Source: Promethearchaeota archaeon
GTDB lineage: Archaea; Asgardarchaeota; Lokiarchaeia; Sigyniarchaeales; SOKP01
Length of the DNA stretch: 64,000 nt
Assembly (NCBI GenBank): GCA_008080735.1
Contig: SHMW01000005.1
Span: forward strand, 24,135 to 88,134
Direction of reading: 5' to 3'
The translations under genes and the position numbers were made by a program. How positions within the stretch are numbered: the stretch's first letter is position 1; each line of letters opens with the position of its first letter. Below, in pieces: positions 17,858-64,000 of this stretch. Below the pieces are notes generated by a model. That model saw only the letters and a list, made by a program, of their open reading frames with translations. It was not told where the DNA came from and did no database searches.

Positions 17858-17859
17858 TA

Positions 17860-19960: not shown

Positions 19961-19961
19961 A

Positions 19962-41057: not shown

Positions 41058-42178
41058 AAATAGCATACATAGCACCGTACCGAGACGGCACAGGATATTC
41101 ACAAGCAGCTATTGCAAATATATTGGCTATGGATGAAGTCGGTATAGAAGTTGTTCCGCGTCATGTTAAGATGACCAATAGTGTTGGTAATGTTCCAAAT
41201 CGAGTAACAGACTTAGAAGAGAACGATCTTAATAATGTAGACGCTGTAATACAACACAATTTACCAAGCGAATTCTGTAGAAATGGAGACATACCACATA
41301 TTGGTATATTTGCATATGAAACAGATAAAGTTGCTTCCAATAACTGGAAGTATCACTTAGATTTAATGGACTTAATTGTAACACTTAATACATTCCAAAA
41401 AGAAGCAATAGAACAAGTTTTGCCAGACAAGACTGTTAAAGTTATAACAACTCCAATAATTGAAGATCAAAAAAGAGTTGGATTATCATTTGATCTGCCA
41501 ATTAAGGGTAAGACAGTATTTTATACCATATCTGAACTAACAGAACGTAAAGGTATACATCAATTACTGGCAGCCTACTACAATACATTTAGTTGTTATG
41601 ATAATGTAATTTTGCTTATCAAAGGGCATAAAGCCGGATTGTCGCCACAGGATTCACTAAATTACATTAATGACTTATCTAATAATATAAAAAATAGATT
41701 AAACAAGTATTCTGACAACTATATGTATCCACAAATTTTGGTTATGCCAGAATATTTATCAGATGAACAAATCAATTATCTGCATAGAATTGGCGATGTT
41801 TTTGTATCGGCCAGTAAAGGCGAAGCGTATTGCATACCTTTTGTAGATGCTATGCATTTTGGCAACCCAACAATCGTTCCTTATCATACAGCATTTAGAG
41901 AATTTGCGTATGATAGAAATTTATTAGTTAATTCAATATCAACACCTTGCTTTGGATATGATGGTGGTATATCTCGCATTTATACATCACGAGAGACATG
42001 GCATAATATTGAACAGATAGATTTACAGTGTGCATTTAGAGTTTGCCATAATAAGCTAGATAGTTTTACTAACCAAAAGATTGTTAATAATAGAAAAAAT
42101 CATTGTAATAAATTATTTAATTCAGAAAACATAGGTAATATGTTTAAGGAAACGATAGAAAATGCAATTAAAGCATAA
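41054..42178 (+). CDS. GT4-like glycosyltransferase
   Basis: TGYS.AA, ERKG, DVFVSASKGEAYCIP..DAM. Confidence 0.85.
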   Translation: MKIAYIAPYRDGTGYSQAAIANILAMDEVGIEVVPRHVKMTNSVGNVPNRVTDLEENDLNNVDAVIQHNLPSEFCRNGDIPHIGIFAYETDKVASNNWKYHLDLMDLIVTLNTFQKEAIEQVLPDKTVKVITTPIIEDQKRVGLSFDLPIKGKTVFYTISELTERKGIHQLLAAYYNTFSCYDNVILLIKGHKAGLSPQDSLNYINDLSNNIKNRLNKYSDNYMYPQILVMPEYLSDEQINYLHRIGDVFVSASKGEAYCIPFVDAMHFGNPTIVPYHTAFREFAYDRNLLVNSISTPCFGYDGGISRIYTSRETWHNIEQIDLQCAFRVCHNKLDSFTNQKIVNNRKNHCNKLFNSENIGNMFKETIENAIKA

Positions 42179-43163
42179 TAACATATTAAGAATTATTAAC
42201 AACACAGGTAAATACAATATCCTAACCGGGGCAACACACGAAAGGTATCAATCTAATTGGCAAACTATGCCACATAGATTTTATTTAATGCAACACGATC
42301 GATTCAAACCTTGGGGTTTCGATCAAGCACCATTGCCGGAAAACCATATATTTTTACCAAAAGGATCGAGCATTCCTTGGGATATTAATATTGATATACT
42401 TTTAAGTCAAAATAAATTTGGTCAGTATCAAAATATTAAACCTATGTCAGATCGATTTGGACTTCCATTTATTAGTTTAGAACATACATTGCCTGTGCCA
42501 ACTTGGAATAACAAAATAAGAAAATCTGTTAGACAAATGACTGGTGATGTCAATGTCTTTATTAGTGAATACAGTGTTAAACAGTGGGGTTTTGAAGATG
42601 TAGATAATGTTGAAGTTATTCACCATGGTGTAGATACAGAAAAGTTTGTTCCAAAAGATGTGGAAAAAGATGGTAAAATATGTACTATAGTTAACGACTA
42701 TATAAATCGCGATATATTTTGCGGATGGAATATATATAAACAGGTGGTTATAGATAATAATTTGGATGCTAACCCTTGGGGAAATACTCCGGGTTTTTCT
42801 CAGCCAACAAAAGATGTGGACCACTTGATATCTATATTACAAAATGCTAGTGTGTTTTTTAATACCAGCACGGTTAGTCCTATTCCAACTGCTTTATTAG
42901 AAGCTATGTCTGTTGGCACACCTTGTGTTTCTACATCGACATGCATGATACCAGACATTATAGAAGATGGCGTAAATGGCTTTATAAGTAATGATCCAAG
43001 TGAACTAAGATCAAAACTAGAATGGTGTTTAGAAAACGAAGAAGAGTCTAGAAAAATTGGATTAAACGGCAGAAAAACAATTGAGAAGATGTTTAGTTTA
43101 GACGATCATATAAACAAATGGAATAATTTATTTGCTAGAATAGCAGGAAGAACATCGATATGA
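42162..43163 (+). CDS. GT4-like glycosyltransferase
   Basis: IHHGVD...F, P.ALLEAMSVGTPCV, IIEDGVNGF. Confidence 0.88.
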   Translation: MQLKHNNILRIINNTGKYNILTGATHERYQSNWQTMPHRFYLMQHDRFKPWGFDQAPLPENHIFLPKGSSIPWDINIDILLSQNKFGQYQNIKPMSDRFGLPFISLEHTLPVPTWNNKIRKSVRQMTGDVNVFISEYSVKQWGFEDVDNVEVIHHGVDTEKFVPKDVEKDGKICTIVNDYINRDIFCGWNIYKQVVIDNNLDANPWGNTPGFSQPTKDVDHLISILQNASVFFNTSTVSPIPTALLEAMSVGTPCVSTSTCMIPDIIEDGVNGFISNDPSELRSKLEWCLENEEESRKIGLNGRKTIEKMFSLDDHINKWNNLFARIAGRTSI

Positions 43164-43642
43164 AGCTTAACTTACAATGTGGTGAAGATTTAAGAAATGG
43201 ATATAAGAATATAAATTTTGGCCCAATTCAAGGGTCTAATAATCATCCCGGAATAGATTTTATAGTAGGTGATTTTAGAAATTTAAGTAGTGTTATATCT
43301 GATGACAGTTGTGAGGAAATTAACTTTGTACCGGTTTTTAACATTGTGAATCCGAACGAAGTTATTCATGTTTTACGACATTGGCGTGATAAATTATCTA
43401 ACCGAGGTGTCTTGAAAATACATATGGTGGATATTAGATTATTGTCAGGTTTAATCTACGATGGAGATATAGAACTTAATCAAATACATAAATTAATTTT
43501 TGGTTCACAACAACCACATCAGAATGTAATGGATCTAAAAAATATTAAACAAGCGTTAGAATCTAATGGTTATCAAATAGAATCTATTAATATTGCTAAT
43601 GACTTTATGCTGAGAATTGAATGTTATGCCATTAAAGAATAG
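43160..43642 (+). CDS. Degenerate class I SAM methyltransferase-like protein
   Basis: KLNLQCG....GYKNI resembles KLNLGCG; W...L...GVL.I. Confidence 0.65.
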   Translation: MKLNLQCGEDLRNGYKNINFGPIQGSNNHPGIDFIVGDFRNLSSVISDDSCEEINFVPVFNIVNPNEVIHVLRHWRDKLSNRGVLKIHMVDIRLLSGLIYDGDIELNQIHKLIFGSQQPHQNVMDLKNIKQALESNGYQIESINIANDFMLRIECYAIKE

Positions 43643-44171
43643 ATTTTCAAATGTTAGTAATCGTTATCCTGCTATTGACAGCATGACCTATTGTACTGCC
43701 ATATTGACAGACAAGGTTAAATACGAAGATATCGACAAATTGTTAAAGTATTCTGATATTATAGATCATTTATCATTAACAATGTATCCATATGATAAAA
43801 GATTTGATCAAAATATTTTGCAAGATGTTCTAAATTCCTTTAATACTTGGTCAATAGAATGGGTAGAAGATACAGTAAATCCATCCGAAAAACAAATGAT
43901 CAACAATTCTTTTCGTCATATATCTACCAACTGGGGTGCTTATTCAAGTTTTGATGACATGTTTTCGGTTGATCAAATAGTTAAAGCTAAACGAATTATA
44001 AAGCAAAATCCAGATATATACACTTTATACACTAAAGGCGGATCAAAGCAATATAAGTTAATAACACGCCCATCTGTATTTGTTCAGTTTCATGGCAATG
44101 TTAACAATCCATTATTATATAAAATCAAGTGTCAATGCTCAAATTGGAAAGAACTATGCGTCAAGATATAA
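43626..44171 (+). CDS. Hypothetical protein in glycosylation cluster
   Basis: ORF. Confidence 0.65.
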   Translation: MPLKNRFSNVSNRYPAIDSMTYCTAILTDKVKYEDIDKLLKYSDIIDHLSLTMYPYDKRFDQNILQDVLNSFNTWSIEWVEDTVNPSEKQMINNSFRHISTNWGAYSSFDDMFSVDQIVKAKRIIKQNPDIYTLYTKGGSKQYKLITRPSVFVQFHGNVNNPLLYKIKCQCSNWKELCVKI

Positions 44172-44926
44172 AGGTAGGAATAATTACAGCCTGCTATAAT
44201 GGTGGCAGGTATATGGAAGAATATATCAACGGTATTATGTCTCAAACATATAAACCTACACACTGTGCTATAGTTGATGACAATAGTACTGATAACTCTT
44301 GGTATCAGATAGTTAAATTTATAGGTAAAAGATCGGGCAAGTCTATTAGTCCAAATGAATTTCAAATAGAGTTGAAATTTAACGGTATAATATTTCGTTT
44401 AAAAAGACTGAAGAAAAATGGTGGACCATCAAAAGCACGAAATGAAGCTATAAAATTACTTTATAACGATGTCGAAATTTTTGCGGTTTATGATATCGAT
44501 GACTGGTATAAACCAGAAAAAATCGAAAAGTCTTTAATAGCAATGTCGGAAAATCCACATGCTGGTTTAATTTATAGCGATTATTCTGTATACAACGAAG
44601 CTAATGATACATTGACTAGAGAATATAAAGAACCTTTTGATTATAATAGATTGGTTCAAGAGTGCATTGTATCAAATAATTCTATTTATACTAAAAATGT
44701 TTTAGATAAAATTGGTCTTTATGACGAATCCATACGTGGACCAGAAGATTACGATATGTGGTTACGAATGGCAGAGAAGTGTATGATATACCATGTTCCT
44801 GAAGATCTATATACATATAGAGTTAGTGGAGAAAACTTAACTATTAAAACAGACTCCAAAGAGTTTGCTAAACAAGTTCAAAAAGTTAAGAATAAAATAG
44901 CAGAAAGACAAAATGCAAGATCATAA
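44156..44926 (+). CDS. GT2 glycosyltransferase
   Basis: IITACYN, VDDNSTDNS, GPSKARN, DIDD, EDYDMWLR. Confidence 0.92.
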   Translation: MRQDIKVGIITACYNGGRYMEEYINGIMSQTYKPTHCAIVDDNSTDNSWYQIVKFIGKRSGKSISPNEFQIELKFNGIIFRLKRLKKNGGPSKARNEAIKLLYNDVEIFAVYDIDDWYKPEKIEKSLIAMSENPHAGLIYSDYSVYNEANDTLTREYKEPFDYNRLVQECIVSNNSIYTKNVLDKIGLYDESIRGPEDYDMWLRMAEKCMIYHVPEDLYTYRVSGENLTIKTDSKEFAKQVQKVKNKIAERQNARS

Positions 44927-45422
44927 AACACATTCTAGAGATTTCTCAATTGGATTTGTGGTTAATCATTTGGGACCAAACCAGACATCCTACGGTGTTA
45001 TAAAAGCGTGTAATGAATGTTTGTCTAAATATAATAACATATCACCGTCAATATATTATGTAAATCAGTCCATACCATGTATAAAATCAATTGTTCCAAG
45101 GTATCCATCTTATGAAATAAGAGATCATGTAGGTATGATAATAGCCACATCGGTCGAAACCGCATTGCTTATACAACAATCATATCAACCAAATAGATAT
45201 AAAATATTTTATATTGATGATTTACATTATTTAAGAAATTCATTGATGTTGAAAAGCAAATATAACGATATAATGTTAGATAGTGACATTGTTAAGATTT
45301 GTAGATCTCAAGATCATGCAAAAGAATTAATGCAACTAGGTTATAGTATACATAACAAAACGATACCTTATATTAAAATAGAAAGCTTTTTGGAGATGTT
45401 AAATGGCACAGAAGAAATCTGA
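44913..45422 (+). CDS. Hypothetical protein, possible GT-B N-terminal-like fragment
   Basis: IAT..ETA, FYIDDL. Confidence 0.6.
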   Translation: MQDHKTHSRDFSIGFVVNHLGPNQTSYGVIKACNECLSKYNNISPSIYYVNQSIPCIKSIVPRYPSYEIRDHVGMIIATSVETALLIQQSYQPNRYKIFYIDDLHYLRNSLMLKSKYNDIMLDSDIVKICRSQDHAKELMQLGYSIHNKTIPYIKIESFLEMLNGTEEI

Positions 45423-50033: not shown

Positions 50034-53000
50034 CTAAAAACCATTTCGATCAGTAAAGACAAATCCGGCACTTTTTATTGGATTAATTTTATATAGCATC
50101 TTATGGTTATCACTAGTAAAAACACCTTGGGTATAATTAAAAGATTCGTTATCTAATGCTATTGGGATTATACGATTACTACCCTTAAGGTCGTTTGTAT
50201 AATATAAATTATCATTGTATTTAAAAGACGGATATAACACCAAATTTCCAGAAGATGCTAATTTGGCAAATAAAAACCCAGTGAATAACGATTGTCGTGT
50301 ATCTATATCTATTGGATTATAATTTGCCGTTCCACTAGAAAATTGATGATTAAAAACAGTTTCGCCATCAATAGTTTTAACTGTCACATCACATACTGTA
50401 TCGTTACCTGTTTCTATTCCTGATATATAAGTATAATAAGATTCTAACTTGCTATTTTCTGAATAACACGACTTTTCGCTATCAAAACAAGCTAGAACAT
50501 TAGAAAATAAAAAATTGCCTGTAATATCAAATATAGCATCATAATCATTTCGTAATCCTACTTTGCTATATGTTACTTCTGATCTGGGATTAAGATAGTC
50601 ATCACCATTAGATGATGTCAATCCACTTGGAACTGTAAATGATCCAGGGTTTGTTATAGACGAAATAGATGTACTACGATCTATAACTAAGCTAAATTCT
50701 TTCTCATAAGAATTATATGTTAATATACCAAACCCAAATACAGCATCGGCCTCAGTATTCCAATCATTTTCATAGGATGGAGTGCCGCTGGACGCATATC
50801 GTATTGTATAACCACTAACATCATCTTGTATTGGGATTATAAATCTACCGTCATTATTATATAACTTTTCGGTATTGGTGTAAAATCTCGTACCACTGTA
50901 ATTTCTTTTTTCATTAAAAACATTTCCATTAGAATAACTTTCATCATAGTTATCATAATAAGTAGATGTATAACTATCTATTAAATGATAATTATTACCT
51001 CCGGAGTGTTCTATGGCAGCAAAGTAATAAATGCCACTAGAATTAGTATCATCAAAATCAGACGAACTTTTAGCGTGATAGTAAACCACAGAATTATCCC
51101 CTAGGTTTCTCCACACAGTGTTGCGTTCCATTGTTGGATAATCATTAATTTCGGCTGGTAAACTACCGCTAAAAACAACATGAGAACCAGAGATATTAAA
51201 AGTGTTAACAGGATCTCTTGAAAAATAATTGTCACCACGATAAGTCTGTACATATCTAAAAGAATTTGGTTGATCATCTGCCGCACTGTTAAATAAAGAA
51301 TATGTTTTCTTAGCGGTGTTGAATATGGCATAGTCATAATCTTCTTCTGAAGGATAATTAACACCATCACTTAAATCATGAAGTATCTTTTCATTCAAAA
51401 GGGGCGGTTTAATATGATCACACGCAAACAAACGTTTTATTACACCGCTTTCACCAGATAGATCTATAATATTTAAAGAATCCACTTGGCCATTTTGAGG
51501 ATTATATGGCACAAGCTGGTTCGATCCACTAACAGACCAAATATAATCTTGATCTATGCCAACAACATTGTTTATATTTAAAGTATGGTGAAAATTATGG
51601 TTACAATGAACGTCGTCATTATTTATTTGTAATGTGTATAAACCACTGTTAAACGGTGTATAAACCCACTGTTCTCCCGATGGTATATTCGGCCAATGTG
51701 CTAATTGTTGAGACGACCTAACATCATACGGGTTTATATTGTTTAGTTTGTATAATGTTTCATCGCCGCTACCATTTATTGGCAACATTCCCATGTTATT
51801 TAATCCACTATATCCGTTTAACGATCTTCTAGATGAGTCTTGTCTCTCTACACTACCAATAATTTCTCCAAAAGTATCAGATGTATTGAGATCCAAAACC
51901 CCAGAATTAATATTGATACGAATATATTGATTATTAACACCAGAAACAGAATCAATACCATAACCGTTCACAAGGCTGTAACTACTATTCGATATATGAC
52001 GCTGTTTATCATAAATTTGATTATGATCATCAATAGGGCCAGATGAATAATATGCTATAAAGCCACTAACATTATCGTAATATACACTTGGCCCGGCAAC
52101 AGTTTGATCCGTATAAACAACATTGTATCCCAAGGTTGTTACACTATTAAGCCCATCATCCTGTAATATGTGTATGAGATCAGAATGACCGCTACAATAA
52201 ACTATGTATTCAGGAAAATCTGTAGATGACAAATTATAAAATACACGTCTATTCTTTGTTACAGTAGATTCGGTTGCATCATAATATTTTTGATTTTCAA
52301 CAAAAGCAAGCAAGTTTTTGTGACTTTTGCCAATGTGAACTAAATCTTTAACAATGTTTTCAGCATCAGGTATATATCTTTTAGACACTAAATGATTACC
52401 AACAGATGTTCTGGTGCATATATAGTCTTCATCAGTAATATAACTATAATAATTGCTATAAAATGGCGGTTTTGGGCCATTTGAAGAACACTGCCTGAAA
52501 AACCCTATAGGACCATCATGTGGTAATTTAGCACCCAATGTAACTTTAGGAAGTTCTTTTTGAACGTAATCTACAGAAGATATGCTAGTTTCTTTGGTTG
52601 TTATATTATCAACGTCATTACCTACCAATCTCACACTACTATATCCATAAAGACTTTCGTCTATAAAGAAAATACGATTGTTAAACAAATATGAATTACG
52701 ATCTCCGTCAACATCATATATATTACTAGTAACATCCGACATAGAATCATTATATATATAATACTTGTTATCGGTTTTATTAATTAAATAATAATTAACT
52801 GCTGGAATATATTTAATAGATCTTACATCACTAACAGAAGTAGGATTTGATACTCCGCTAATATTAGCAGTATTATTAGTTAAATCAACTTGAAACCAAT
52901 TGGTATGACCATTTCCTTCCAGAACTATATTAATTTTGTCATTATACCAAAATCCAGACAAATATCTAATTAGAGTCGTTCCACTGTTTGCTGGACAATC

Positions 53001-55247
53001 AAGCAATGTATTAAAATTTTGCCATGAATATAATTTAGTGTCGTGATTATGAAAATCTATATTATAAAGTCCATCATCAGCAATACCAAGTAATTTATCT
53101 CCACTAGGATGATAGAAGAAGTTATAAACTTCATTAGGTCTACTGCCAATACCTAAATATGGACTATACCCATAATCTGCGATTGTGTTTGTGTAAGTAA
53201 AATTGTTACTGGTATTTGTATCTAATTGATTGCATGATCCACTTGCGTGAAACAGTAAATCGTCGTTATCATTTGATAAAAACGTATGTCCTAATGATGT
53301 AAACCAAGTATTATTGTTTCTGCCTGTGCAAAATACTTCAGAACCTATCTGACTGAGATATCCCGATCCATATATATTAGAAACCATCAATCCATCTATA
53401 TAATCTCCCAAAGACATGACATCGTTGATTCCAGAACAATAAATGCTTCCCAAAATAGTTCCGCTAGTATATGGGCTATCTTCGTAATAAAATAATTTAA
53501 TTTCATCCGAATCTATACCAGCAGGTAGACTAAATATTTTATCGTCTGATATAGTGGAAAAGTTGTATGTTTCATCCATTACTACTTTTTGGTCGCCAAA
53601 ACCATTTTTTAAATTTTTATATAATTGACCATCATTACCTAGTATATATCTTCCTTGGCTGCTTATAGAATAATTATTTCTTCTGGTTGAACTAATACTA
53701 TCAATATTGGTATATTTAATACCACTTGGTTCTGAACTTCTTTCAGCAGTTGAACATCCTAAAGCAAAATTCCCAAAAATATCTGTACCACCCAAATTTG
53801 GTCTAGACAAAATTTTCCAATTAATAACATCGCCTGAATTATTGTTTAGATCATATCTCCAAGAAATTTCTTGCCCAGACCTAACTGAATTAATTAAATC
53901 ATAAACTTTTAAATGTTCAATATCTGATTCTGTTTGGTCATGATAAGTTACAGTATATGCATAGGTAGTCATGTTTGTGAATGGTTGTATATGTTTGTAA
54001 GATATAGGTGTATAGCCTATAACACTTTCTGGCCAACCACTAGCAGAAAAATCTCCTGAAGGATATTGGAATAAAACAGGAGAATTTTCAGACATATAGT
54101 TATGCGATCCACTTCCAACCCAATCAGACCAACCACAATCTAAAATTCCAGGCTGAAGATTGTTTCTGTTATCATAAACTAGTTGGTACACACCACTTAA
54201 TGTACTATAATCTAAAAGTCCACGATTAACTTCAATTCTAGCATTTATCTGATTCGGACGTTTTATTGTTCCACGCATAGATATTCCGCTAGGAAATTCA
54301 ATGTCCCAATAAGCTTCTCCATCTCCATATTGTGAATTAAGTTCTTGATCAATATAAGTATTATTGTCATTGTCAAATGTTACAATATAGCCACTGGTAA
54401 ATGGAATATATTCAGTTTCATCTTCATTTAAACCAAAATAACCATATCCAAAACAATCAGCACATGTTATTCCTGATTCAAATATAAAACCATTAGTACA
54501 ATTGCCACACTTCTCTATAGGCTTGGTTCTAAACAAACCTTTAATAGTTAAATATGTTGGAATTTCGGCAGTTTTTCCATCATAAGAAGTAACATTATAA
54601 GATGTTGTATACACAGATACGCCGCTGGCAAAATCAAACTCTGCGTATGAACCGTTAATATAGCCATACGAGCGTTGTATAAATGTGTCGTCTAAATATT
54701 GGTCTATATAACCATAGGTGCCATCTGAACTACTATAATTATATTTTAAAGTATTGCCAGAATTATATGGAACTATAGGATTCCAAGTGTCATTTTTAAT
54801 AAACCACTTTTGAGATGTAGATATTCTATGACTATTAAAACTAGTATTAACAGATCCAGTAACAAATAATGAATTAGATCTGTTTGACTGTAAATATAGT
54901 GCAATTTTTCCAAATACACATTCGTCCAATAAACTTCCAGCATAAACAGATTTTGAATCTAAATCAACATATCCACTAGTATTAGTATCTTTAACATATC
55001 TAGGATATTCTCTTAGTGTGCTAGGGCTAGAATATGTACGAGATGAATACAAACTCAATCTCTGTATATATTTTTCCCATCCACTCACAGCAATTGGATT
55101 AATGTTTTGTTCTATAACAAGTTTACAGGCTTTTTCTGCCTCGATAGATGAAATAACATCATAATCATCCCATATGTTCTTATTACTATTAAAATATGGT
55201 AATTGATAATCCCAAGTAGCGGTATTGATATTGAAAATCATGTCCAA
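50034..55247 (-). CDS. Large beta-rich virion/tail-associated protein (1737 aa), Ser-Gly rich
   Basis: S/N/Y/D/T-rich composition, about 45 SG dipeptides, CxxC...CxxCxGxG motif. Confidence 0.75.
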   Translation of the reverse strand: MDMIFNINTATWDYQLPYFNSNKNIWDDYDVISSIEAEKACKLVIEQNINPIAVSGWEKYIQRLSLYSSRTYSSPSTLREYPRYVKDTNTSGYVDLDSKSVYAGSLLDECVFGKIALYLQSNRSNSLFVTGSVNTSFNSHRISTSQKWFIKNDTWNPIVPYNSGNTLKYNYSSSDGTYGYIDQYLDDTFIQRSYGYINGSYAEFDFASGVSVYTTSYNVTSYDGKTAEIPTYLTIKGLFRTKPIEKCGNCTNGFIFESGITCADCFGYGYFGLNEDETEYIPFTSGYIVTFDNDNNTYIDQELNSQYGDGEAYWDIEFPSGISMRGTIKRPNQINARIEVNRGLLDYSTLSGVYQLVYDNRNNLQPGILDCGWSDWVGSGSHNYMSENSPVLFQYPSGDFSASGWPESVIGYTPISYKHIQPFTNMTTYAYTVTYHDQTESDIEHLKVYDLINSVRSGQEISWRYDLNNNSGDVINWKILSRPNLGGTDIFGNFALGCSTAERSSEPSGIKYTNIDSISSTRRNNYSISSQGRYILGNDGQLYKNLKNGFGDQKVVMDETYNFSTISDDKIFSLPAGIDSDEIKLFYYEDSPYTSGTILGSIYCSGINDVMSLGDYIDGLMVSNIYGSGYLSQIGSEVFCTGRNNNTWFTSLGHTFLSNDNDDLLFHASGSCNQLDTNTSNNFTYTNTIADYGYSPYLGIGSRPNEVYNFFYHPSGDKLLGIADDGLYNIDFHNHDTKLYSWQNFNTLLDCPANSGTTLIRYLSGFWYNDKINIVLEGNGHTNWFQVDLTNNTANISGVSNPTSVSDVRSIKYIPAVNYYLINKTDNKYYIYNDSMSDVTSNIYDVDGDRNSYLFNNRIFFIDESLYGYSSVRLVGNDVDNITTKETSISSVDYVQKELPKVTLGAKLPHDGPIGFFRQCSSNGPKPPFYSNYYSYITDEDYICTRTSVGNHLVSKRYIPDAENIVKDLVHIGKSHKNLLAFVENQKYYDATESTVTKNRRVFYNLSSTDFPEYIVYCSGHSDLIHILQDDGLNSVTTLGYNVVYTDQTVAGPSVYYDNVSGFIAYYSSGPIDDHNQIYDKQRHISNSSYSLVNGYGIDSVSGVNNQYIRININSGVLDLNTSDTFGEIIGSVERQDSSRRSLNGYSGLNNMGMLPINGSGDETLYKLNNINPYDVRSSQQLAHWPNIPSGEQWVYTPFNSGLYTLQINNDDVHCNHNFHHTLNINNVVGIDQDYIWSVSGSNQLVPYNPQNGQVDSLNIIDLSGESGVIKRLFACDHIKPPLLNEKILHDLSDGVNYPSEEDYDYAIFNTAKKTYSLFNSAADDQPNSFRYVQTYRGDNYFSRDPVNTFNISGSHVVFSGSLPAEINDYPTMERNTVWRNLGDNSVVYYHAKSSSDFDDTNSSGIYYFAAIEHSGGNNYHLIDSYTSTYYDNYDESYSNGNVFNEKRNYSGTRFYTNTEKLYNNDGRFIIPIQDDVSGYTIRYASSGTPSYENDWNTEADAVFGFGILTYNSYEKEFSLVIDRSTSISSITNPGSFTVPSGLTSSNGDDYLNPRSEVTYSKVGLRNDYDAIFDITGNFLFSNVLACFDSEKSCYSENSKLESYYTYISGIETGNDTVCDVTVKTIDGETVFNHQFSSGTANYNPIDIDTRQSLFTGFLFAKLASSGNLVLYPSFKYNDNLYYTNDLKGSNRIIPIALDNESFNYTQGVFTSDNHKMLYKINPIKSAGFVFTDRNGF

Positions 55248-56059
55248 GATCCTAATGCCGGTATAGCATTAAGCAAACCATGTCCGCTTGCTTCTGTTAG
55301 GTTTACCGGAAAAAAGCTCGCATAAGCTGGTCCCCCATCGTCAACCGTATTAACCAAATGCTTATGTTTTTGAATTCCTCCGATAAATGTCCAAACATTT
55401 CTGTCTCTATCATATCTTAAGTCAATTGGGGCGGCAACATATTCTTTGGGATCAATCAATCGTCCATGATCAACATCACCAATAAATTTCGTACTATCGC
55501 TGGACGATTCTGGGAAAGGATTATCATCAGTATCATATCCCCAGCCTATTCCTATAACTGGAAGACGCAAGCCAATACTACGAATGTCATCATTACGCAT
55601 ATATTGTTGCATATTATTATTATAACCACTACCAGTAGTAGTCCCGGTGTAAAATCCACCGCTTGGATATGTATAGAGGTTCAATAATGTACCGCTACCA
55701 CCATGACCAACCCATTCAAATGGCAATAAATTACTCAGTACTACAGATTCAGACGAACTTTCAGAACCAGCACTAGATGAAAATGTAGGGATGCTGTTTC
55801 CACTTGCCGTAGAAAATGGCATTAATAAATTAGATAAATTTGTAGAAAAAGATTGTTGATAAAATTCATCCGAAACACTTGCTAAATTATTTTCGACTGC
55901 AAAACTATCTGTTATTGAAACATAGGTACGATTAATCTTAAATTCATTATCTGTACCAGATGGTACATTGTTAAAATAACCAACTATAGAGTTGAAATTT
56001 TCAGCATTATCATTTGGAACACTTGGGTCATAACTTTGATATTCTGAATATAGTGGCAT
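55238..56059 (-). CDS. Putative virion structural protein
   Basis: RSIGLRLP...GWGYD...P.P and PIDLRYD....VW; located in the structural cluster. Confidence 0.7.
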   Translation of the reverse strand: MPLYSEYQSYDPSVPNDNAENFNSIVGYFNNVPSGTDNEFKINRTYVSITDSFAVENNLASVSDEFYQQSFSTNLSNLLMPFSTASGNSIPTFSSSAGSESSSESVVLSNLLPFEWVGHGGSGTLLNLYTYPSGGFYTGTTTGSGYNNNMQQYMRNDDIRSIGLRLPVIGIGWGYDTDDNPFPESSSDSTKFIGDVDHGRLIDPKEYVAAPIDLRYDRDRNVWTFIGGIQKHKHLVNTVDDGGPAYASFFPVNLTEASGHGLLNAIPALGSWT

Positions 56060-56063
56060 AATA

Positions 56064-59000
56064 TTACTTTCTAAATCTGTTTCGTCCTATACCAAACGCT
56101 CTGTGTTCAAAATTAACATTTTCTGTTGGTTTAATCTCACTATCAGAAGCCAATCTAGTCAATTGATCATAATCAGATTTTCTATAATCTCCAGGCAATC
56201 CACGATAACTAGACATATTATACGTAGTGGTTATTCCGCCAATGTCAAAAGTAACAGCCATACCTAAAATATTACTATTAAAGCCAAGGTTTGACGCTAG
56301 ACCATATTCTGGGAAACCAGCTACTGTTATAGAAGCATTGTCTATATATTCTAAATCTGATAACGATCTTGCCAATCTTTCTTCTCCGGCAGCATCTAAA
56401 TTAGCGTCCCAACTTCCTGTTGTTGGTCTTTCAAAATTCCAAGGAACCAATGATTCATCAACATCTATGTCAACCATTCCATTAACAACAGAATCTTCAT
56501 AATACCAAGGTCCATAAGTTACTAAATTACTAGTTAGTGGTATAATTACCGCTTTGAGATCCATTAAATATTCATCTGCAAAAACATAAGAATATTTTTT
56601 ATTAGTATGTGTAGATATCTGTTCAGACCATCTAACCAATGCCTTTTTAAATTCTGTTGTACCAACTTGTTCTTTCAACCACTTAAGATTATCATCCTTA
56701 TCCGATAACACGTTAAGCCATTTAACTATACCACCACGTTTAATTTTCCATGTTGTTTTTTGGTCATCTGCATTAAAATTAATCAAATCATCATACGAAT
56801 CTAATGGATCAAAAGATATTTGTGAAGGCAATGTTACCAATGCTAAGTCTGGTCTATGAGCAATTTGTACAATATCAGCACTTGAAAATATATAATCAGG
56901 ATTTCCTTCTGCTATTCTATTAGGAGCGAATTCAGACGTGGGCAAGTCTTGGAACATAACGCGATTATTGCCGTTGGATGAATAATTAGCATTACCACTG
57001 GGTTTCCAATCTATAGCAACCATTGGGTAAAAACGACCGTCCTCAGCCATAAACCTATCAATTATTTGTTTTTCTTGATCAACTAAATTTTGATATCCAG
57101 AACCAGTTCCGTTTGCCAATCCGTCAAATTCTGATGGTAATGTTTCCCAATAAGATCTATCTGCTACAAAATATTCAATTTCTGGTCTATTCTTATATGT
57201 AGGTACTGATTGGTTACTCCATATCCTATGCATAGTATAAGAATATGGTAATGTTACAACAAACTTAGAACCCATGTACTCTGCCGCATACTCATAAACC
57301 CATTTCCAAACCTGTCTTCTGAAATCAAATAAAGCAGCAGCGTTAGCAGCGTCATTAGAGTTGTTTAGTGGATCTACATATGTGTATGGCAGCACATTGA
57401 TTTTACTTAAATTAATACTATTTGAACTAAATGCTCCAGATATACCAGTTGTATCAAAAGTTGGAAAATTTAATCTATCTGCAATTTCAGGATAATACTG
57501 ATTATACACTGTGTAAAATGGATATTCGCCAACAAGAGCTGCTCTTAAAACTTCAGTATTTAATGGCAATCCTCTAGATTTATTAGCGTATTGACCAGAA
57601 TCAAACTCATAGCCAGATGCTACACACCACGGTCTATAATCTGATTGACCGTCGTTACTAATAAACATATCGTTATGACTGAAACTTCTTACTTTATAAC
57701 GTTTTGTTTCTATTTCAACCAATGGGATGTCGTTTTTTATATCTTCTCTTGAGAAAGCTATATGGTCTAATGGCAAAAATGGTGTAGCCATAGGATGGCC
57801 AGAAGTAGAACCAAATCCCCAAAATGGGAATATACTGCCGACTTGAAAAGTATCATCATTAGAAAATAATCTTGTTGTTATATTGGTTGGGAAAGAATCA
57901 TAACCAGATCCAAAATTATAATATTCGGTTGGATATGCAACATATGAAGAATTTCTTTTACCACCAGCTATTACTTTACTACTAGGTTCATTTTTAAATT
58001 CCTTGCCAATATTAGCTTTATTAACTATTTTTGCACGATTATTAATAAATGAAGTTATTTCTGTTTTTAGCAAAGCATTGTCATCTTCACGACGAATGGC
58101 TTTAAATTCTATAGTTGCTGTATTGTTATTAACCTTTCTGGCTATAATGACTAAATCTGATCCACCATCGTTAACAATTTTAGTTATAAGAGAAATTAAA
58201 TCCATTGTTAGATTAGATATTCTATACCACGAAGGAGCATCATTAAAAGCTTCTCCGGTAAAAATGAATTCAAAATTTATCCCAAACACAACAGCTCTCA
58301 TATGTTCAAGAGCATACTGTATCTTTGTCCACTGCATTCCTTTATCATTACGATTAGATGTCCATCCGTGATCGTAAAATCCAAAAACATCAAGTATATT
58401 ACTGACATTATCAAACCTAGGCTGGCCTTCACCAAAATTATGGGAAAGTGACCAATTTCCAAGGATAACTTCAACACCAGAAAGTATTTCTCTCGGATCC
58501 ACCATGTTAACATTTATAGTTCTACCACCAGAATTAATAGTATCTTCAGTCCAACTAGAACAAATACCACAAAAATAAAACGGAGTATTAGATGGATCAT
58601 AACTATCTGGATTAAGATTTATATTATCATAAAACAACGGAGCATCAATCCCACCGCTTGGCAAACTTATAGCATATAGAGCTGGTGGAGTAGGTTCATC
58701 AAAAGAATCTCCAGATTCTGTATCTTCTACAAGAGTAACACTTAAACTAGTGGCTACACTATTCCATCCTATCGTAGAATTCATAGACAATAAAGAACAA
58801 CCCATAAATTTATAAACACGATTTTCTGCTGTTATATCAGATTGACCGGCTGTTTGTTTGTAGATCTGTGCAGCATTATAACCACTAATACGAACAGATT
58901 CATCCCATATATCTAACAAATCGCTATTAGGAATTTGTGAATATGACCAAAAAGTTGTTCCTAGATAACCAGTAAAATAATTATTAGATGGGTTTGTGAA

Positions 59001-60059
59001 TGGCAAAGCACCCAAATAGGCTGTGTCTGTATCGATGCCTAGAGTATTAATACTTGCCACACCAGTACTGTTGTAGGTATCATTAATGTATCCAAACTCA
59101 AAATTAATGCCACTTCTAGAAACATAAGCTAAAGAATGTCTGTCAAATGTAGTAGATATATTAATATATCCGCTTGCAGTTTGAACGCCACTGGAAGCAT
59201 AATAACCAATGTTGATTGAGGATGAGCCTATCGATTCTGCATAAATATATTGATAATTCCCTAATAAATCTTCTTCGCCGTATATAATATACTTATCGCC
59301 ACCACTAGGTTTTATCCAAGAACCAATAGTCCATTCATTAGAATTGGACATTACTTTATAATCAACACCACTAGCTACTTCTACATAATTGTTTCCATGA
59401 AGATAGTATACTGGTTGATTATTTACACCCTGAAAACTAAAGTTGCTGTCATCAAATCCACGATACCGACTAAAATTATCGTTGACAGATAAATCCCAAG
59501 CTATTCTATCATTGTTAGTAGCTGCTCCATGATGAGTAATAATACCAGACGCATTATGTGATCTTAATGCTGTGGCGGTAGCGTCTGTAGCATAACCTTC
59601 TCTTGGGTCATATGGAGATGTGACACTAGAAGATGATACTGATACTCCAGATGCTTCATAACCAGCTTCAAATAAGTATGATACATCATTGTCAATAATG
59701 AAATCTTTGGCAGAGTTATCTTCATAAATTATTAATTTATTATTATAAGCACCAAACTTAACAGTACCGTCACCACTAGTATTAACTAAATTAGTATATC
59801 CCAAAGAGGTTGTTACATCTTCAACTGTTTTAGAATATTCTCCACTAGGATGGTCAAATTTAAAAGCATAATAAGAACCACTAGCAGAGGAATGCCTAAC
59901 TCTGGCTTCAACATAATTGTCGCTGACTAATGAAGGAATAGACAAACTTATTAGCATATTGTGACTAGAAACTACGCTATATCCGCTTGTCTGTGCTACT
60001 GAATTGCCTTCTGATGTATACGAAGGCTGAAATAATAGTGGTATTAAATTAGGCTTCAT
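56064..60059 (-). CDS. Putative tail/baseplate protein with N-terminal LamG/concanavalin-like domain
   Basis: WTIGSWIKP...YFTGYLG (LamG-like), then FMGCS......IGW......L.V.LVED, YGPW, DESLVPWN. Confidence 0.7.
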   Translation of the reverse strand: MKPNLIPLLFQPSYTSEGNSVAQTSGYSVVSSHNMLISLSIPSLVSDNYVEARVRHSSASGSYYAFKFDHPSGEYSKTVEDVTTSLGYTNLVNTSGDGTVKFGAYNNKLIIYEDNSAKDFIIDNDVSYLFEAGYEASGVSVSSSSVTSPYDPREGYATDATATALRSHNASGIITHHGAATNNDRIAWDLSVNDNFSRYRGFDDSNFSFQGVNNQPVYYLHGNNYVEVASGVDYKVMSNSNEWTIGSWIKPSGGDKYIIYGEEDLLGNYQYIYAESIGSSSINIGYYASSGVQTASGYINISTTFDRHSLAYVSRSGINFEFGYINDTYNSTGVASINTLGIDTDTAYLGALPFTNPSNNYFTGYLGTTFWSYSQIPNSDLLDIWDESVRISGYNAAQIYKQTAGQSDITAENRVYKFMGCSLLSMNSTIGWNSVATSLSVTLVEDTESGDSFDEPTPPALYAISLPSGGIDAPLFYDNINLNPDSYDPSNTPFYFCGICSSWTEDTINSGGRTINVNMVDPREILSGVEVILGNWSLSHNFGEGQPRFDNVSNILDVFGFYDHGWTSNRNDKGMQWTKIQYALEHMRAVVFGINFEFIFTGEAFNDAPSWYRISNLTMDLISLITKIVNDGGSDLVIIARKVNNNTATIEFKAIRREDDNALLKTEITSFINNRAKIVNKANIGKEFKNEPSSKVIAGGKRNSSYVAYPTEYYNFGSGYDSFPTNITTRLFSNDDTFQVGSIFPFWGFGSTSGHPMATPFLPLDHIAFSREDIKNDIPLVEIETKRYKVRSFSHNDMFISNDGQSDYRPWCVASGYEFDSGQYANKSRGLPLNTEVLRAALVGEYPFYTVYNQYYPEIADRLNFPTFDTTGISGAFSSNSINLSKINVLPYTYVDPLNNSNDAANAAALFDFRRQVWKWVYEYAAEYMGSKFVVTLPYSYTMHRIWSNQSVPTYKNRPEIEYFVADRSYWETLPSEFDGLANGTGSGYQNLVDQEKQIIDRFMAEDGRFYPMVAIDWKPSGNANYSSNGNNRVMFQDLPTSEFAPNRIAEGNPDYIFSSADIVQIAHRPDLALVTLPSQISFDPLDSYDDLINFNADDQKTTWKIKRGGIVKWLNVLSDKDDNLKWLKEQVGTTEFKKALVRWSEQISTHTNKKYSYVFADEYLMDLKAVIIPLTSNLVTYGPWYYEDSVVNGMVDIDVDESLVPWNFERPTTGSWDANLDAAGEERLARSLSDLEYIDNASITVAGFPEYGLASNLGFNSNILGMAVTFDIGGITTTYNMSSYRGLPGDYRKSDYDQLTRLASDSEIKPTENVNFEHRAFGIGRNRFRK

Positions 60060-61575
60060 TAGATCTTGAAACTAAAGTAGAAAATAATCTTGTGTTACCA
60101 TTCGCTAGTCCTGATACCGAAACCAGTGCGGAAACACCAGCACTAATTCTATTTGAAGATTCATTATAAACAAACATACCTGTATTGTTGATACCAGACA
60201 TATTTTGATTAGAAATTAATAATGAACCATCTCTATCTGTTACATTTAACTTGACACCAGAAATATTGGTTATAATATCTGCATTTCTGTAATAAAATGC
60301 TGTATATTCATCACGCGATTGAGAATCATCGAAATTAACTTGTACATTCGCATGATATACATCTTCTTCATCATCCAGTAGTACTTTACGACCATCAAAC
60401 GACCATACACCCGATGCATCTGCTGAATAAATATTTGTAACACCATCACCGATTGTAGTAATAGCATCTCTATTAATAGCACAGTTAATACAATCAATAT
60501 TGCCATTAATTGTTACTGCTTGATAATTTGTACCAATTAAATCGAATGAACAGTTTATGGCTGTTATATTGCAACCAGATGTTTCTGATTGCAACGCACC
60601 ATCAATAGTATTATTAAACTGTTTTATACGACAGTTTCTTATTACAACTTGAGCGTTACTTCCAACAGAGTTTACAGGAGGCTGTTCAGCGTGGCTTTCA
60701 ATCAAGTTGATTTCAGCATCTATAAATCCACCATCACATTCCAATGCGTGTCCAGAACATTTTATATGGTTCACTTTTATAAAAGTTCGGGATGGTGAAT
60801 TGACATTATCAACCGTTCCATCTGATGATTCAATATAGTTTCCAACAAAATCGATATGAGCATCTTCATTACCAATTACTCTAGACTCGCTAACAACTCT
60901 ATCTACTTCACAATAAACACTAGAACTATTAGACAATTTTAAAAAATCTAATGTTGTATTAAAACAACCCTTGCCTGTAATATTAAACGTAACGGCACCA
61001 GAAGCATCATCAAACAAATTGCTAGATGTTTGATTGATAGTTGTTCCAGGTAAAAAATTCCAATTTACACCGTTCACCAAGAGATTGGTAGAATTGTTAT
61101 ATATTCCTGGTCCAACATGTATAGTATAACCAGATGACGCTGAATTTTTAGCATTATCTAAAGTTAATTTAGCATTATTCCAAGATCTTCCACTATATGA
61201 ATCATTTCCATCTTTATTAACATATAAAACATTGTTATTATCTTCTAGGTTGACCCTAGTTCTTGGCGAACTAGCATCTAACCATAGATAGCCATCCCAC
61301 CAACCATCAACAGAAGCTTCTGGCAAAATGTTAATACTTGGTGATGTAGTGGGATAAACAATCATACTCCAATTGCCTGATGGCATATCAGATGGAACGG
61401 TATATTGCCAAATAGAACCGGAAGTCCCAAGTCTAGCTGGAGTTACTAGATAGTCATCAAAAGAAGCATCATCCCAAGATTCGGTTGTGGTATTTGTTAC
61501 ATCCCAAGCATATCCATCATCTCTGACAAACAATGATCTTGTTTCGTCTGATGATACATGAAATATTTTAGCCAT
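60049..61575 (-). CDS. Tailspike-like right-handed beta-helix (pectin-lyase-like) protein
   Basis: YVNKDGND..SG.SW..AK.TL..A......TIHVGPGIY followed by N/C/I beta-helix repeats. Confidence 0.75.
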   Translation of the reverse strand: MAKIFHVSSDETRSLFVRDDGYAWDVTNTTTESWDDASFDDYLVTPARLGTSGSIWQYTVPSDMPSGNWSMIVYPTTSPSINILPEASVDGWWDGYLWLDASSPRTRVNLEDNNNVLYVNKDGNDSYSGRSWNNAKLTLDNAKNSASSGYTIHVGPGIYNNSTNLLVNGVNWNFLPGTTINQTSSNLFDDASGAVTFNITGKGCFNTTLDFLKLSNSSSVYCEVDRVVSESRVIGNEDAHIDFVGNYIESSDGTVDNVNSPSRTFIKVNHIKCSGHALECDGGFIDAEINLIESHAEQPPVNSVGSNAQVVIRNCRIKQFNNTIDGALQSETSGCNITAINCSFDLIGTNYQAVTINGNIDCINCAINRDAITTIGDGVTNIYSADASGVWSFDGRKVLLDDEEDVYHANVQVNFDDSQSRDEYTAFYYRNADIITNISGVKLNVTDRDGSLLISNQNMSGINNTGMFVYNESSNRISAGVSALVSVSGLANGNTRLFSTLVSRSNEA

Positions 61576-61577
61576 GA

Positions 61578-61892
61578 TTAACCATCCTTCTCTTCTAATT
61601 CGGCTTCTACGAAAGGTTCGTTTGTAATGCTATCCCATCCTATACGACAACTTTTACAATGAAAACCAGGCGATGGTGTAAATATTAAAGCATCTCGATC
61701 AGCTACGTTACCATCTTCATCAACCGCAGGTTGGTCACGTTTAAACTCGAATGCCTTTTTATTATTAACTTTACCCACAAACGTTTCTTTACGCTTTATA
61801 CCTGAGATAATGGTTCTTGGCATTTTGCCAACCCTTTTATCTTTGTCAAACGATATTGTAACTTCCTTTTTATCCATATTTATTTTTGCCAT
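61578..61892 (-). CDS. Hypothetical protein
   Basis: ORF with AGGAG SD. Confidence 0.7.
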   Translation of the reverse strand: MAKINMDKKEVTISFDKDKRVGKMPRTIISGIKRKETFVGKVNNKKAFEFKRDQPAVDEDGNVADRDALIFTPSPGFHCKSCRIGWDSITNEPFVEAELEEKDG

Positions 61893-61904
61893 TTTATTTC
61901 TCCT

Positions 61905-63536
61905 TTAAATAGTCTTTTGATATGGAGTTAATTTTTCTCCATATTCTAATTGAGCCGCTGTAACCCACATAGATTGCCCAATTACATCATTTGGTTGAAT
62001 TTGTACGTTTAGCTGGTCGCCAGTTGTTAATTCATCTTTTATCCATAAGCGAAACCATCCATCGTCTTCTTCTTCATAACCACCTTCATCACCAATACTA
62101 AGGGAAAATGATTTGGTAGCAAAGGTAAAAGTAAAATCGCAAAAATTTGAGCCACCAGCTCTATAGACTAAGCCGCGACAAGTAGTCGAATCATCTGTCT
62201 TAGTATAAAAAGAATAAATATATGGACCACTTGGATATATAAAATATGGTGAAGAATACCAGTCTTGTTCCACTAATCTAGGCGTTCCTGTGCTGGTTGA
62301 TTCTATTTTAGTAGCAACATTATTGCCCCAAGGATCGTTTGTATCATTAGGTGTTACGTTTATATCAATTTTGCTATCCCAATCATCTAGTGATTCTGAG
62401 TAGGGTAATATATTATGATTAGATATAGACACTAGATTTGGAGAGCTATCATACGGATTCCTTTGATAGTATGTTGCAGTATCTTCAGGTTCAAATTGCG
62501 AAGCTGTGTAATAGGTATAATCGGACACAGAATTAGAATCCACCCTAACCCGAACTGATGTGTCATTATTATTCGTTACATCATCTGCCGTTATATATAA
62601 TCTATACCAATTATTAGGCACTGATTCGTAACCACCACCATCTCCCGTTATCAACGAAAATGATTCGGTGGCAAACGTAAATTCGCCTTGTGCCCTATGA
62701 CCACCGCCAACAGTATTATCTCTTATTACGATGTCGGCTTTATCGTCATTTCCTTGTTTGGTGTATACGCTAAAAGTGTACCATCCAGTATTGTAAGGAA
62801 AATTGGACCATCTATACTCTGCTCTGGGAAAAGATGTTCCAATAGCGGTTATTTTGTTACCACGTAATTTACCCCACGGGTCAAGTATAGAATCTGAGTC
62901 TACCGAAGCATTAATCTGGTTCCAATCAGCATTATCAAATTGATCTGTATATGTTAAAATATTATGATTAGAACGACTATTTATAGTATGGGCACTAGTC
63001 GGTGGCGTTTTTTGATAATTGGTCATAATAGACCCATATTCCAATTGAGCACCAATCATATACACATCACTACTACCACTATCTTCAGGCCCCATCTGTA
63101 CTCTTAATTGATTTCCGTTAGTTATTCCAGCATCTGTGACATAAATTCTATACCAACCGTCAATTTTTTCTTCATATCCACAACTATCACCAGTGTCTAA
63201 AGATATAGATTCTGTAGAAAATGTAAAAGTAGCTTTTGCTATATTACTAGAAGTAGTTACATCTCTTATAGTTATAAATGCAGAGTCTCCTTCAGAAGCT
63301 TGTTTACAATAGACACTAGCTGTATATGTATCGCTAGGACCATTAAATGGATCTATTTCATAGTAGGCAGAAGGATAACTTCCTGTTCTAGAAATAAGAT
63401 CAGCAGAATTTCCACCCCAAGGATCAGAAGATTGATTATCACTAACAGTAGCGTTATTAGAACCCCATCCTGTTCCACTTAAATCCTCAGAAGGATTAAT
63501 TAAGTTATGATTACTAATACTTATAACTTTAGACAT
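61905..63536 (-). CDS. Virion fibre protein with three tandem CBM-like beta-sandwich repeats
   Basis: Three ~180-aa units, each SNHN.L...W...DPWG...FTF.T...GYE....WYR...AQLE.....T.YQ. Confidence 0.8.
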   Translation of the reverse strand: MSKVISISNHNLINPSEDLSGTGWGSNNATVSDNQSSDPWGGNSADLISRTGSYPSAYYEIDPFNGPSDTYTASVYCKQASEGDSAFITIRDVTTSSNIAKATFTFSTESISLDTGDSCGYEEKIDGWYRIYVTDAGITNGNQLRVQMGPEDSGSSDVYMIGAQLEYGSIMTNYQKTPPTSAHTINSRSNHNILTYTDQFDNADWNQINASVDSDSILDPWGKLRGNKITAIGTSFPRAEYRWSNFPYNTGWYTFSVYTKQGNDDKADIVIRDNTVGGGHRAQGEFTFATESFSLITGDGGGYESVPNNWYRLYITADDVTNNNDTSVRVRVDSNSVSDYTYYTASQFEPEDTATYYQRNPYDSSPNLVSISNHNILPYSESLDDWDSKIDINVTPNDTNDPWGNNVATKIESTSTGTPRLVEQDWYSSPYFIYPSGPYIYSFYTKTDDSTTCRGLVYRAGGSNFCDFTFTFATKSFSLSIGDEGGYEEEDDGWFRLWIKDELTTGDQLNVQIQPNDVIGQSMWVTAAQLEYGEKLTPYQKTI

Positions 63537-63545
63537 TATTTACCT

Positions 63546-64000
63546 TTATGACAGCGTAACGCTTGGCAATCCTGAAAACGCAGTTTCTCCGTCTCCAATC
63601 GCCAAAATGTGTGTATCAGTAGAGTATCCCATTTCTCCTGGTTCTAACACCTCTGTAGATAATGTTGTTTCTAATCCACGCCTAATAAGTATAACACTTT
63701 GATTATTATTGTCAAAATCTGTTGCTAGATAACCATTTGCAACATTGGCTTGGTTATCGGTTATGTGTTCTGTCATACTACCACTTTCACAGAACGTAAA
63801 TTTATGAGTATTTTGATTATAATAAAATGTACCGTTTTCGGCACCACTTGGTTGTGATGCAACTGGTTTTAACCTTACACCATTGTTGGTCCACAAATAC
63901 ACTGCGTTTGATTGTAAAGCTGTTTTTCCAGAACCAATTATAGTTACATAATCGTTTCCACCATCGTTTAAGCTATCTCCAGACAAAAAATTATTACTAC
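63546..64000 (-). CDS. Tail-fibre-related protein with Mtd/hyaluronidase N-terminal-type motif (5' end beyond the window)
   Basis: IRRG........L.PGE.GY.TDT..L.IGDG.TAF..LP; the frame is open to the window edge. Confidence 0.75.
   Translation of the reverse strand, partial: SNNFLSGDSLNDGGNDYVTIIGSGKTALQSNAVYLWTNNGVRLKPVASQPSGAENGTFYYNQNTHKFTFCESGSMTEHITDNQANVANGYLATDFDNNNQSVILIRRGLETTLSTEVLEPGEMGYSTDTHILAIGDGETAFSGLPSVTLS

Follow-up and report, generated by a model that had tools for sequence, protein, structure and literature searches.

The stretch analysed here (the window) comprises 64,000 nucleotides of contig SHMW01000005.1 (positions 24,135 to 88,134, forward strand; assembly GCA_008080735.1, Promethearchaeota archaeon), and its subject is the dipeptide Ser-Gly (SG), which is overrepresented in the putative tail proteins encoded at its right end and which, judging from sequence, probably marks sugar-attachment sites on a virus particle. 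The contig is 104 kb long and belongs to a 4.1-Mb bin (contamination 7%) with archaeal EF-1alpha and RNA polymerase. Since its replication genes read as bacterial-type, since no meaningful DNA was found in common with the rest of the bin and since the sample originates from marine sediment, the contig is most likely a bacteriophage, i.e., a large siphovirus, mis-binned in an archaeal genome; moreover, no CRISPR or DNA link to the archaeal contigs of the bin was found. The predicted fold of its tail tube resembles those of T5 pb6 and related siphovirus tubes. The fuller relatives of the contig are phages of aquatic origin with genomes of about 130–180 kb, while no cultured member of its own lineage was found and the genome-collection scan returned nothing.

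On the minus strand lies a structural module that runs 16 kb past the window end (Table 1). Two gene models of the earlier note had to be corrected: the "1737-aa" protein starts at the ATG at 55241 and has 1735 residues, while the open reading frame (ORF) at the edge encodes 178 residues and extends to window position 64082 over a short N gap. The Mtd_N domain of the latter is the only family match among the SG-rich distal tail genes, the other virion roles being suggested by synteny and composition. No counterpart of the 508-aa protein was found in four near-complete relatives, nor any relative of the 543-aa repeat protein; the labels "spike" and "fibre" previously given to these two proteins are backed by no family or PDB match.

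The plus strand carries the sugar genes. Where about ten glycosyltransferases plus sulfo- and methyltransferases had been announced, Pfam identifies eight glycosyltransferase-like genes (two below cut-off), a lone GT4 N-terminal domain and a single sulfotransferase domain (Sulfotransfer_2). In relatives, the conserved cassette (39390-45422) is oriented convergently to the tail module. GT4 genes were detected in all but one of the 17 relatives (16), the exception being a 33% complete genome. Within the cassette, the 160-aa protein is methyltransferase-like by eye, without a family match, and the 184-aa protein has no assigned family. The accessory cluster includes an RXYLT1/GT47-like gene, a weak GT2, a methyltransferase-sulfotransferase fusion, an epimerase, a GT11, a FkbM methyltransferase, a DegT aminotransferase and FdtA. 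The stand-alone GT4 N-terminal (acceptor-side) domain is virus-specific and conserved in the cassette, and could be an adaptor.

Table 1. Sugar genes and tail-module genes of the window (window coordinates).
Feature	Position	Strand	Remark
GT10-like glycosyltransferase	4942..5757	+	accessory; in 1/4 relatives
Accessory sugar cluster	16108..24356	+	mostly absent from relatives
555-aa GT4 glycosyltransferase	39390..41057	+	first cassette gene; candidate initiating enzyme
Two more GT4 genes (374 and 333 aa)	41054..43163	+	candidate chain-extending enzymes
Remaining conserved cassette (160-aa, 184-aa, GT2, lone GT4 N-domain)	43160..45422	+	
GT2 of cassette	44129-44926	+	
Lone GT4 N-terminal domain	44913-45422	+	
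1735-aa S/G/N/T-rich protein	50034..55241	-	last gene of tail module; virion role suggested by position and composition
273-aa conserved tail-module protein	55238..56059	-	
1331-aa conserved tail-tip (hub-like) protein	56064..60059	-	~400-aa N-terminal extension; role suggested by synteny (after tape measure gene)
508-aa accessory tail-module protein	60049..61575	-	
543-aa repeat protein	61905..63536	-	
178-aa protein, C-terminal part	63546..64000	-	Mtd_N tail-fibre domain

Ser-Gly pairs in the outer virion proteins

All hand dipeptide counts of the earlier note were reproduced by a recount. The 1737-aa ORF holds 45 SG (15.1 expected), next to 17 Gly-Ser (GS), 12 Asn-Gly (NG), 12 Asp-Gly (DG) and 5 Thr-Gly (TG); the 1331-aa protein holds 23 (10.2 expected) and 10 GS, with 12 of these SG within its first 400 residues; the 508-aa protein holds 11 (4.5 expected) and 3 GS; and the edge ORF holds 5 (about 1.6 expected; p = 0.014). 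With 6 SG (3.3 expected; p = 0.10), the 273-aa protein is not significant alone, and the 543-aa protein is an exception (3 SG; 5.0 expected). Enzymes of the same window are at expectation (3 vs. 2.4 for the N-terminal half of DnaE, 6 vs. 4.8 for NrdJ). Among the 3480 ORFs of the bin, none surpasses the two largest SG proteins in SG excess (Poisson p = 4e-10 for the first and 4e-4 for the second). When the 21 ORFs of the minus-strand module are pooled, SG comes top of the 400 dipeptides (154 vs. 77.3 expected; p = 1e-14), compared to ratios of 0.93 in the plus-strand phage genes and 1.09 in the rest of the bin.

As the earlier note had anticipated, SG exceeds the composition-shuffled expectation, and shuffling within 10-residue windows preserves the excess (45 observed vs. 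16.9 ± 3.5). Because GS is at expectation and the excess survives such local shuffles, low-complexity linkers were rejected, and the use of six of the six serine codons rules out a DNA-level motif or codon artefact. SG is infrequent in other reading frames (13 vs. 7 and 26 vs. 24), the higher value of one reverse frame (42 vs. 26) being probably an echo of the sense frame. A joint Ser/Thr-Gly motif was discarded for this lineage, in which TG is only at 1.1x. Known sequons show no enrichment either, be it N-x-S/T (743 vs. 698 expected) or the D-S/T-x motif of Bacteroidetes (195 vs. 188). Taken at the level of sequence statistics, these results indicate that SG is under selection at the protein level.

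In a five-genome set, i.e., this contig and the four near-complete relatives, the outer virion proteins contain 698 SG vs. 386 expected (1.81x), the inner ones (terminase, portal, protease, capsid, chaperones, tape measure) 144 vs. 139 (1.04x) and the non-structural proteins 555 vs. 509 (1.09x), the outer/inner split having been drawn by synteny after the counts were known, but in agreement with a split based on composition only. Accordingly placed among the inner proteins, the 7794-aa tape measure protein of a relative has 48 SG vs. 48.8 expected. Five homologs of the 1735-aa protein (26–27% identity) yield observed/expected counts of 35/14.8, 17/13.1, 57/20.0, 25/19.5 and 30/15.6, and orthologs of the 273-aa protein yield 7/2.7, 16/5.9 and 11/4.8. 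The small protein encoded just before the major capsid gene has 3–4 SG vs. about 1. In the tail tube, all six SG (2.9 expected) are internal; a structural model, partly of low confidence, places five of them in loops, while the sixth, which falls in a strand and is nearly invariant, is probably structural.

Two further SG-rich proteins lie outside this module: a 127-aa S/T-rich protein of the window (2082-2465; 4 SG vs. 1.4), conserved in relative G002, which may be a virion protein, and a 1476-aa protein of the archaeal bin (G000:C71:6094-10524; 22 vs. 10.5). Overall, the S/T/G/N-rich proteins of the bin have SG at 1.23x and GS at 0.78x.

The tail loci of the lineage (n = 40) have a median SG of 1.42x and a median NG of 0.73x, compared to 1.16x and 1.28x for T5-like phages and to 1.18x and 1.34x for other siphoviruses. 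SG is thus higher than in the beta-rich tail proteins of phages devoid of the GT4 enzyme, as had been predicted, but the concomitant drop in NG opens the way to an explanation without modification, in which long-lived aquatic virions would have replaced Asn-Gly, prone to deamidation, by Ser-Gly, while the glycosyltransferases act on DNA or on the host surface. NG indeed amounts to 283 vs. about 451 at control rates, with SG 266 above its own control rate, so that the deficit accounts for at most about 60% of the excess. Moreover, SG anticorrelates with NG+DG over orthologs (rho = -0.40), and AGY codons, which are one step away from Asn, encode 48% of SG serines vs. 32% of the other serines, even though both serine codon families are used. 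Yet this bias and this trade-off are also what one would expect from turns drifting from Asn-Gly or Gly-Gly to Ser-Gly. The baseline SG excess of 1.1–1.25 in control tails and in the S/T/G/N-rich proteins of the bin fits replacement as well; the NG level of 1.3x kept by T5-like phages and by glycosyltransferase-free siphoviruses speaks against it.

The behaviour of the sites themselves also bears on this alternative. Across 73 orthologs of the 1331-aa protein, SG reaches 2.25x where columns vary but only 0.25x where they are conserved, the variable-column values being 0.73x in the GT4 of the same phages and 1.26x in the tail tips of glycosyltransferase-free phages. In these orthologs, SG occupies 179 columns and undergoes 479 parsimony changes, more than NG, DG, TG or GS. 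The residues around SG are not random: Pro, Ala or Val at position -1 (2.0x) and Val, Ile or Leu at +2 (1.56x) are favoured, while Lys and Arg are avoided at -1, +2 and +3 (0.4–0.5x). These flanks are not seen at DG, are weaker or absent at NG of the same proteins, and are not seen at SG of glycosyltransferase-free phages, which argues against a mere replacement of Asn-Gly turns. Finally, aliphatic residues at -3 and +2 fit strand ends.

A GT4 family in otherwise unrelated phages

The first gene of the cassette encodes the candidate modifying enzyme. This 555-aa protein matches PF00534 (32.1 bits vs. a cut-off of 26.4), and its predicted structure (pLDDT 96) matches GT4 structures (GT-B fold). 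Its Glu-x7-Glu is intact (E335 and E343 are shared by the five homologs aligned, which represent four lineages), and it has both the RNQxRK motif of the family and a Cys4 insertion. The best fold match is chlorovirus B736L/A546L (PDB 3OY2; Foldseek E = 1e-18; 14% identity), while the T4 DNA glucosyltransferase is absent among the best 50, which does not suggest an action on DNA. The TET/JBP enzyme (PF12851), which supplies the hydroxymethyl base in DNA-hypermodifying phages, had no match in the five genomes, but the positive control was likewise without match. As for the 374-aa GT4, tblastn found no cultured homolog and blastp gave a weak match in phage immuto.

Distant homologs of the 555-aa GT4, featuring the same RNQxRK and Glu-x7-Glu, exist in the cultured phages S-CBS4, S-EIVl and TJE1, and weaker homologs in Mae-JY09 and immuto. 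In S-EIVl-like phages, the homolog (24–25% identity) is the only GT4/GT2 match, blastp reveals no structural protein in common with the window lineage, and shared proteins boil down to this GT4, a ThyX-like protein, an HNH-type protein and a few small proteins. In these phages too, SG is the top dipeptide (1.75–2.1x), with similar flanks, and TG is at 1.2–1.4x. A coiled-coil argument was dismissed, the spacings in the SG-rich S-EIVl-like protein being 8 and 18 residues and not heptads. Among the other carriers, SG amounts to 1.73x in S-CBS4-like records, 1.55x in TJE1 and 1.46x in Mae-JY09, whereas the family is absent from 17 out of 17 near-complete control genomes. The pooled medians are 1.69 (25 positive sets) and 1.21 (17 control sets), but the former represent about six lineages only, so that pooled p-values overstate independence and the link between GT4 and SG is an association rather than a proof. 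In a blind set chosen by Mtd_N, nine near-complete records without the family range from 1.07x to 1.41x save one at 1.59x, and the three with a GT4 match (two of them near-identical; a weak match) are at 1.38x and 2.06x. Within the lineage itself, contrasting genomes with and without the cassette is impossible, nearly all relatives carrying it. S-EIVl also encodes a sulfate adenylyltransferase and an S-adenosylmethionine decarboxylase near GT4 (L083:17153-18619).

The genomic context of the gene points in both directions. In S-EIVl, it adjoins a primase gene, and several orthologs (P0113, P0140, P0141, P0146, P0149, P0159, P0194) are interrupted by inteins with homing endonucleases, a feature typical of DNA enzymes and unusual for a glycosyltransferase, all of which would fit an enzyme acting on DNA; intein carriage also suggests that the gene is essential. 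In contrast, phage glycosyltransferase genes sit beside or within the structural module in the window lineage, in S-CBS4 and in Mae-JY09, the GT4 of the latter two being inside the head module. The replacement of Asn-Gly moreover leaves unexplained the SG excess of unrelated phages with the same GT4; we regard it as the main rival reading, though an unlikely one.

Several results weigh against SG being the acceptor of this enzyme. Two carriers are close to controls (S-CBS4 itself, 1.35x; immuto, 1.3x), and a genome with a clear GT4 ortholog (G012, 41% complete) is at 1.05x, while G086 (L298, 220 kb, 96% complete) reaches 1.59x without any GT4, GT2 or GT9 match. To these must be added the small number of lineages and the late drawing of the outer/inner split mentioned above. 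The preference at -1 fails to separate positive from negative sets (p = 0.15), B736L, the nearest solved structure, has no known acceptor (PMC9614988), and the mycobacteriophage Che8, although known to be glycosylated, has no SG excess (1.17–1.22). Finally, the major capsid protein holds only two SG and is not enriched, which makes a glycan shield over the whole particle doubtful. The co-variation of SG with glycosyltransferases put forward in the earlier note therefore stands as an association with one phage GT4 family across lineages, with exceptions both ways (G012, G086).

Those exceptions could mean that SG is modified by another phage transferase, by a cytoplasmic enzyme of the host or by a non-sugar adduct, GT4 being a mere fellow traveller. 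The SG excess of G086 and of the incomplete G092 and G093, in which no GT4 family member is detectable, would then be accounted for, as would G012, and the unassigned 184-aa and 160-aa cassette proteins offer other candidates. Nevertheless, the phages sharing GT4 have different hosts by record (Synechococcus, Tetrasphaera, Microcystis), so that a common host enzyme is unlikely, and the few proteins shared by S-EIVl-like genomes and the window lineage leave little else to travel with; overall, we consider this scenario rather improbable.

Some of these genomes have peculiarities of their own. The tail proteins of G012 (L230:1-13000) are rich in Pro-Thr/Thr-Pro repeats (50 Pro-Thr vs. 19 expected), possibly an acceptor switch. 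Like G086, L311 and L312 have an SG excess (1.6–1.9x overall) without detected GT4, GT2 or GT9. Other phages (L271, from the 430-kb genome G073, L288 and L299) feature a Thr-Gly excess of 2.0–2.9x in place of Ser-Gly, G073 having three GT2 genes and no GT4.

According to the earlier note, the SG sites would bear a dense sulfated and methylated coat resembling a proteoglycan, i.e., long chains made by exostosin-type and sulfotransferase enzymes. The window does encode an RXYLT1/GT47-like protein and a Sulfotransfer_2 domain, and SG is the attachment dipeptide of glycosaminoglycans (PMC13405426). However, the RXYLT1-like gene is present in one of five relatives and the sulfotransferase, weakly, in one of five (the PF03567 control being without match), all of them SG-rich, so that these patchy genes are dispensable for the SG signal. 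The peptide O-xylosyltransferase initiating glycosaminoglycans belongs to GT14, of which (PF02485) none was found in the bin or in the four relatives, the control matching in 2 out of 14. Asp and Glu are depleted near SG (8.2% vs. 10.1% near other serines), SGxG is below expectation (35 vs. 57) and SGSG occurs 4 times among 698 SG. Besides, a chlorovirus protein formerly annotated as an exostosin transfers just one xylose residue onto a short glycan (PMC9614988). Given also the unenriched capsid, such a coat appears very improbable.

Apart from these systems, a YheC/D-like ATP-grasp gene and a PAPS-reductase-like gene separate the cassette from the tail module (47774-49607) and are absent from the four relatives. 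DnaE is split in two genes with two unrelated ORFs in between (34376-39100), and is also in two pieces in relatives. By eye, NrdJ (8230-11019) has a short intein-like insertion (about residues 291–412) starting with Cys and ending with Ser-Asn before Cys. The tape measure gene of relative G008 (C1:47422-70806; L067-L068) encodes 7794 residues over 23 kb, which implies a very long tail.

Proposed mechanism and known glycosylation systems

The observed SG excess is confined to outer virion proteins, its sites turn over and favour particular flanks, and it goes together with the GT4 family. On these grounds we favour, with a probability of about 0.6, the reading that SG is a loose O-glycosylation acceptor sequon for a soluble phage GT4, most likely the product of 39390-41057. 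Of the earlier claim of a selected O-glycosylation sequon, selection at the protein level, concentration in outer proteins and co-variation with a glycosyltransferase are thus retained, glycosylation itself being what we infer from them. The putative sequon would consist of a small or aliphatic residue, Ser, Gly and an aliphatic residue, without Lys or Arg close by and usually in a loop. Late in infection, GT4 would act in the cytoplasm, attaching the first sugar to serine hydroxyls of tail and accessory proteins. The remaining enzymes of the cassette would lengthen it into a short glycan, whose cap would differ from phage to phage, in the manner of an O-antigen, depending on the variable accessory genes (GT10, GT11, GT47-like, amino-deoxysugar, methyl and sulfo transfer). 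Selection would bear on how many exposed sites there are, whatever their position, hence turns would drift from Asn/Asp-Gly to Ser-Gly. As for the benefit, it might be protease resistance, folding, or less sticking to sediment or grazers.

Few tailed phages are available for comparison: in the literature searched, virion glycosylation is limited to a few actinobacteriophages, without acceptor rule, and no report of SG as a sequon in phages was found. Che8 is similar in being a tailed phage with its own glycosyltransferases and with structural proteins as proposed acceptors. Its glycans are reported at C-terminal sites of the capsid and tail-tube proteins (Freeman et al. 2023 via PMC12619734, PMC11256854), whereas the window phage has numerous candidate sites that are internal and SG-directed, with few of them in the capsid protein. 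C-terminal sites of this type would give no dipeptide signal, and Che8 has no match to the 555-aa GT4 family. Chloroviruses also encode soluble enzymes, one of them a xylosyltransferase that used to be called exostosin (PMC9614988), but their glycans are N-linked and on the capsid protein, in contrast to the O-linked ones proposed here. The system of the window would thus be kin in kind to the virion glycosylation of mycobacteriophages and chloroviruses, differing in linkage or site.

Bacterial autotransporter enzymes offer another parallel. Aah and TibC are soluble GT-B heptosyltransferases that modify many Ser/Thr of beta-rich surface proteins within a strand-loop-strand motif (PMC3835316); they have a metal finger made of four cysteines (PMC4358343). 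The 555-aa GT4, likewise a GT-B enzyme with a Cys4 insertion and presumably soluble, would act on many serines of beta-rich surface proteins; this insertion is missing in its cyanophage homologs, the sequence and fold matches listed do not include TibC, which combines a beta-barrel with a GT9-like catalytic domain, and there is no GT9 (PF01075) match. Furthermore, Aah has no sequence consensus, whereas a dipeptide is selected in the window phage. In animals, a xylosyltransferase starts the glycosaminoglycan chain at acidic SG sites (PMC13405426); only the dipeptide is common to both systems, the enzyme and the acidic context being missing here, so that the likeness is at most a convergence.

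More tentatively, and at slightly less than even odds, a widespread and so far undescribed phage GT4 family (two seeds yielded 592 and 2682 clusters) may read x-Ser-Gly and place O-linked sugars on tens of sites in each outer-protein subunit. It would do so in aquatic phages that are otherwise unrelated, variable accessory genes providing the diversity of the glycan. What is new is the tie between the SG excess and one enzyme family, along with cultured phages (S-EIVl, S-CBS4, TJE1, Mae-JY09) suitable for direct testing. If true, glycosylated virions would be common in aquatic phages, where counting dipeptides would be enough to spot them, and a target would be at hand for the many glycosyltransferases of large phages, which are often taken to modify DNA. 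This would amount to a portable, sequon-directed system of cytoplasmic O-glycosylation with targets readable from genomes alone, in which one soluble enzyme with a two-residue tag would be a useful tool for glyco-engineering.

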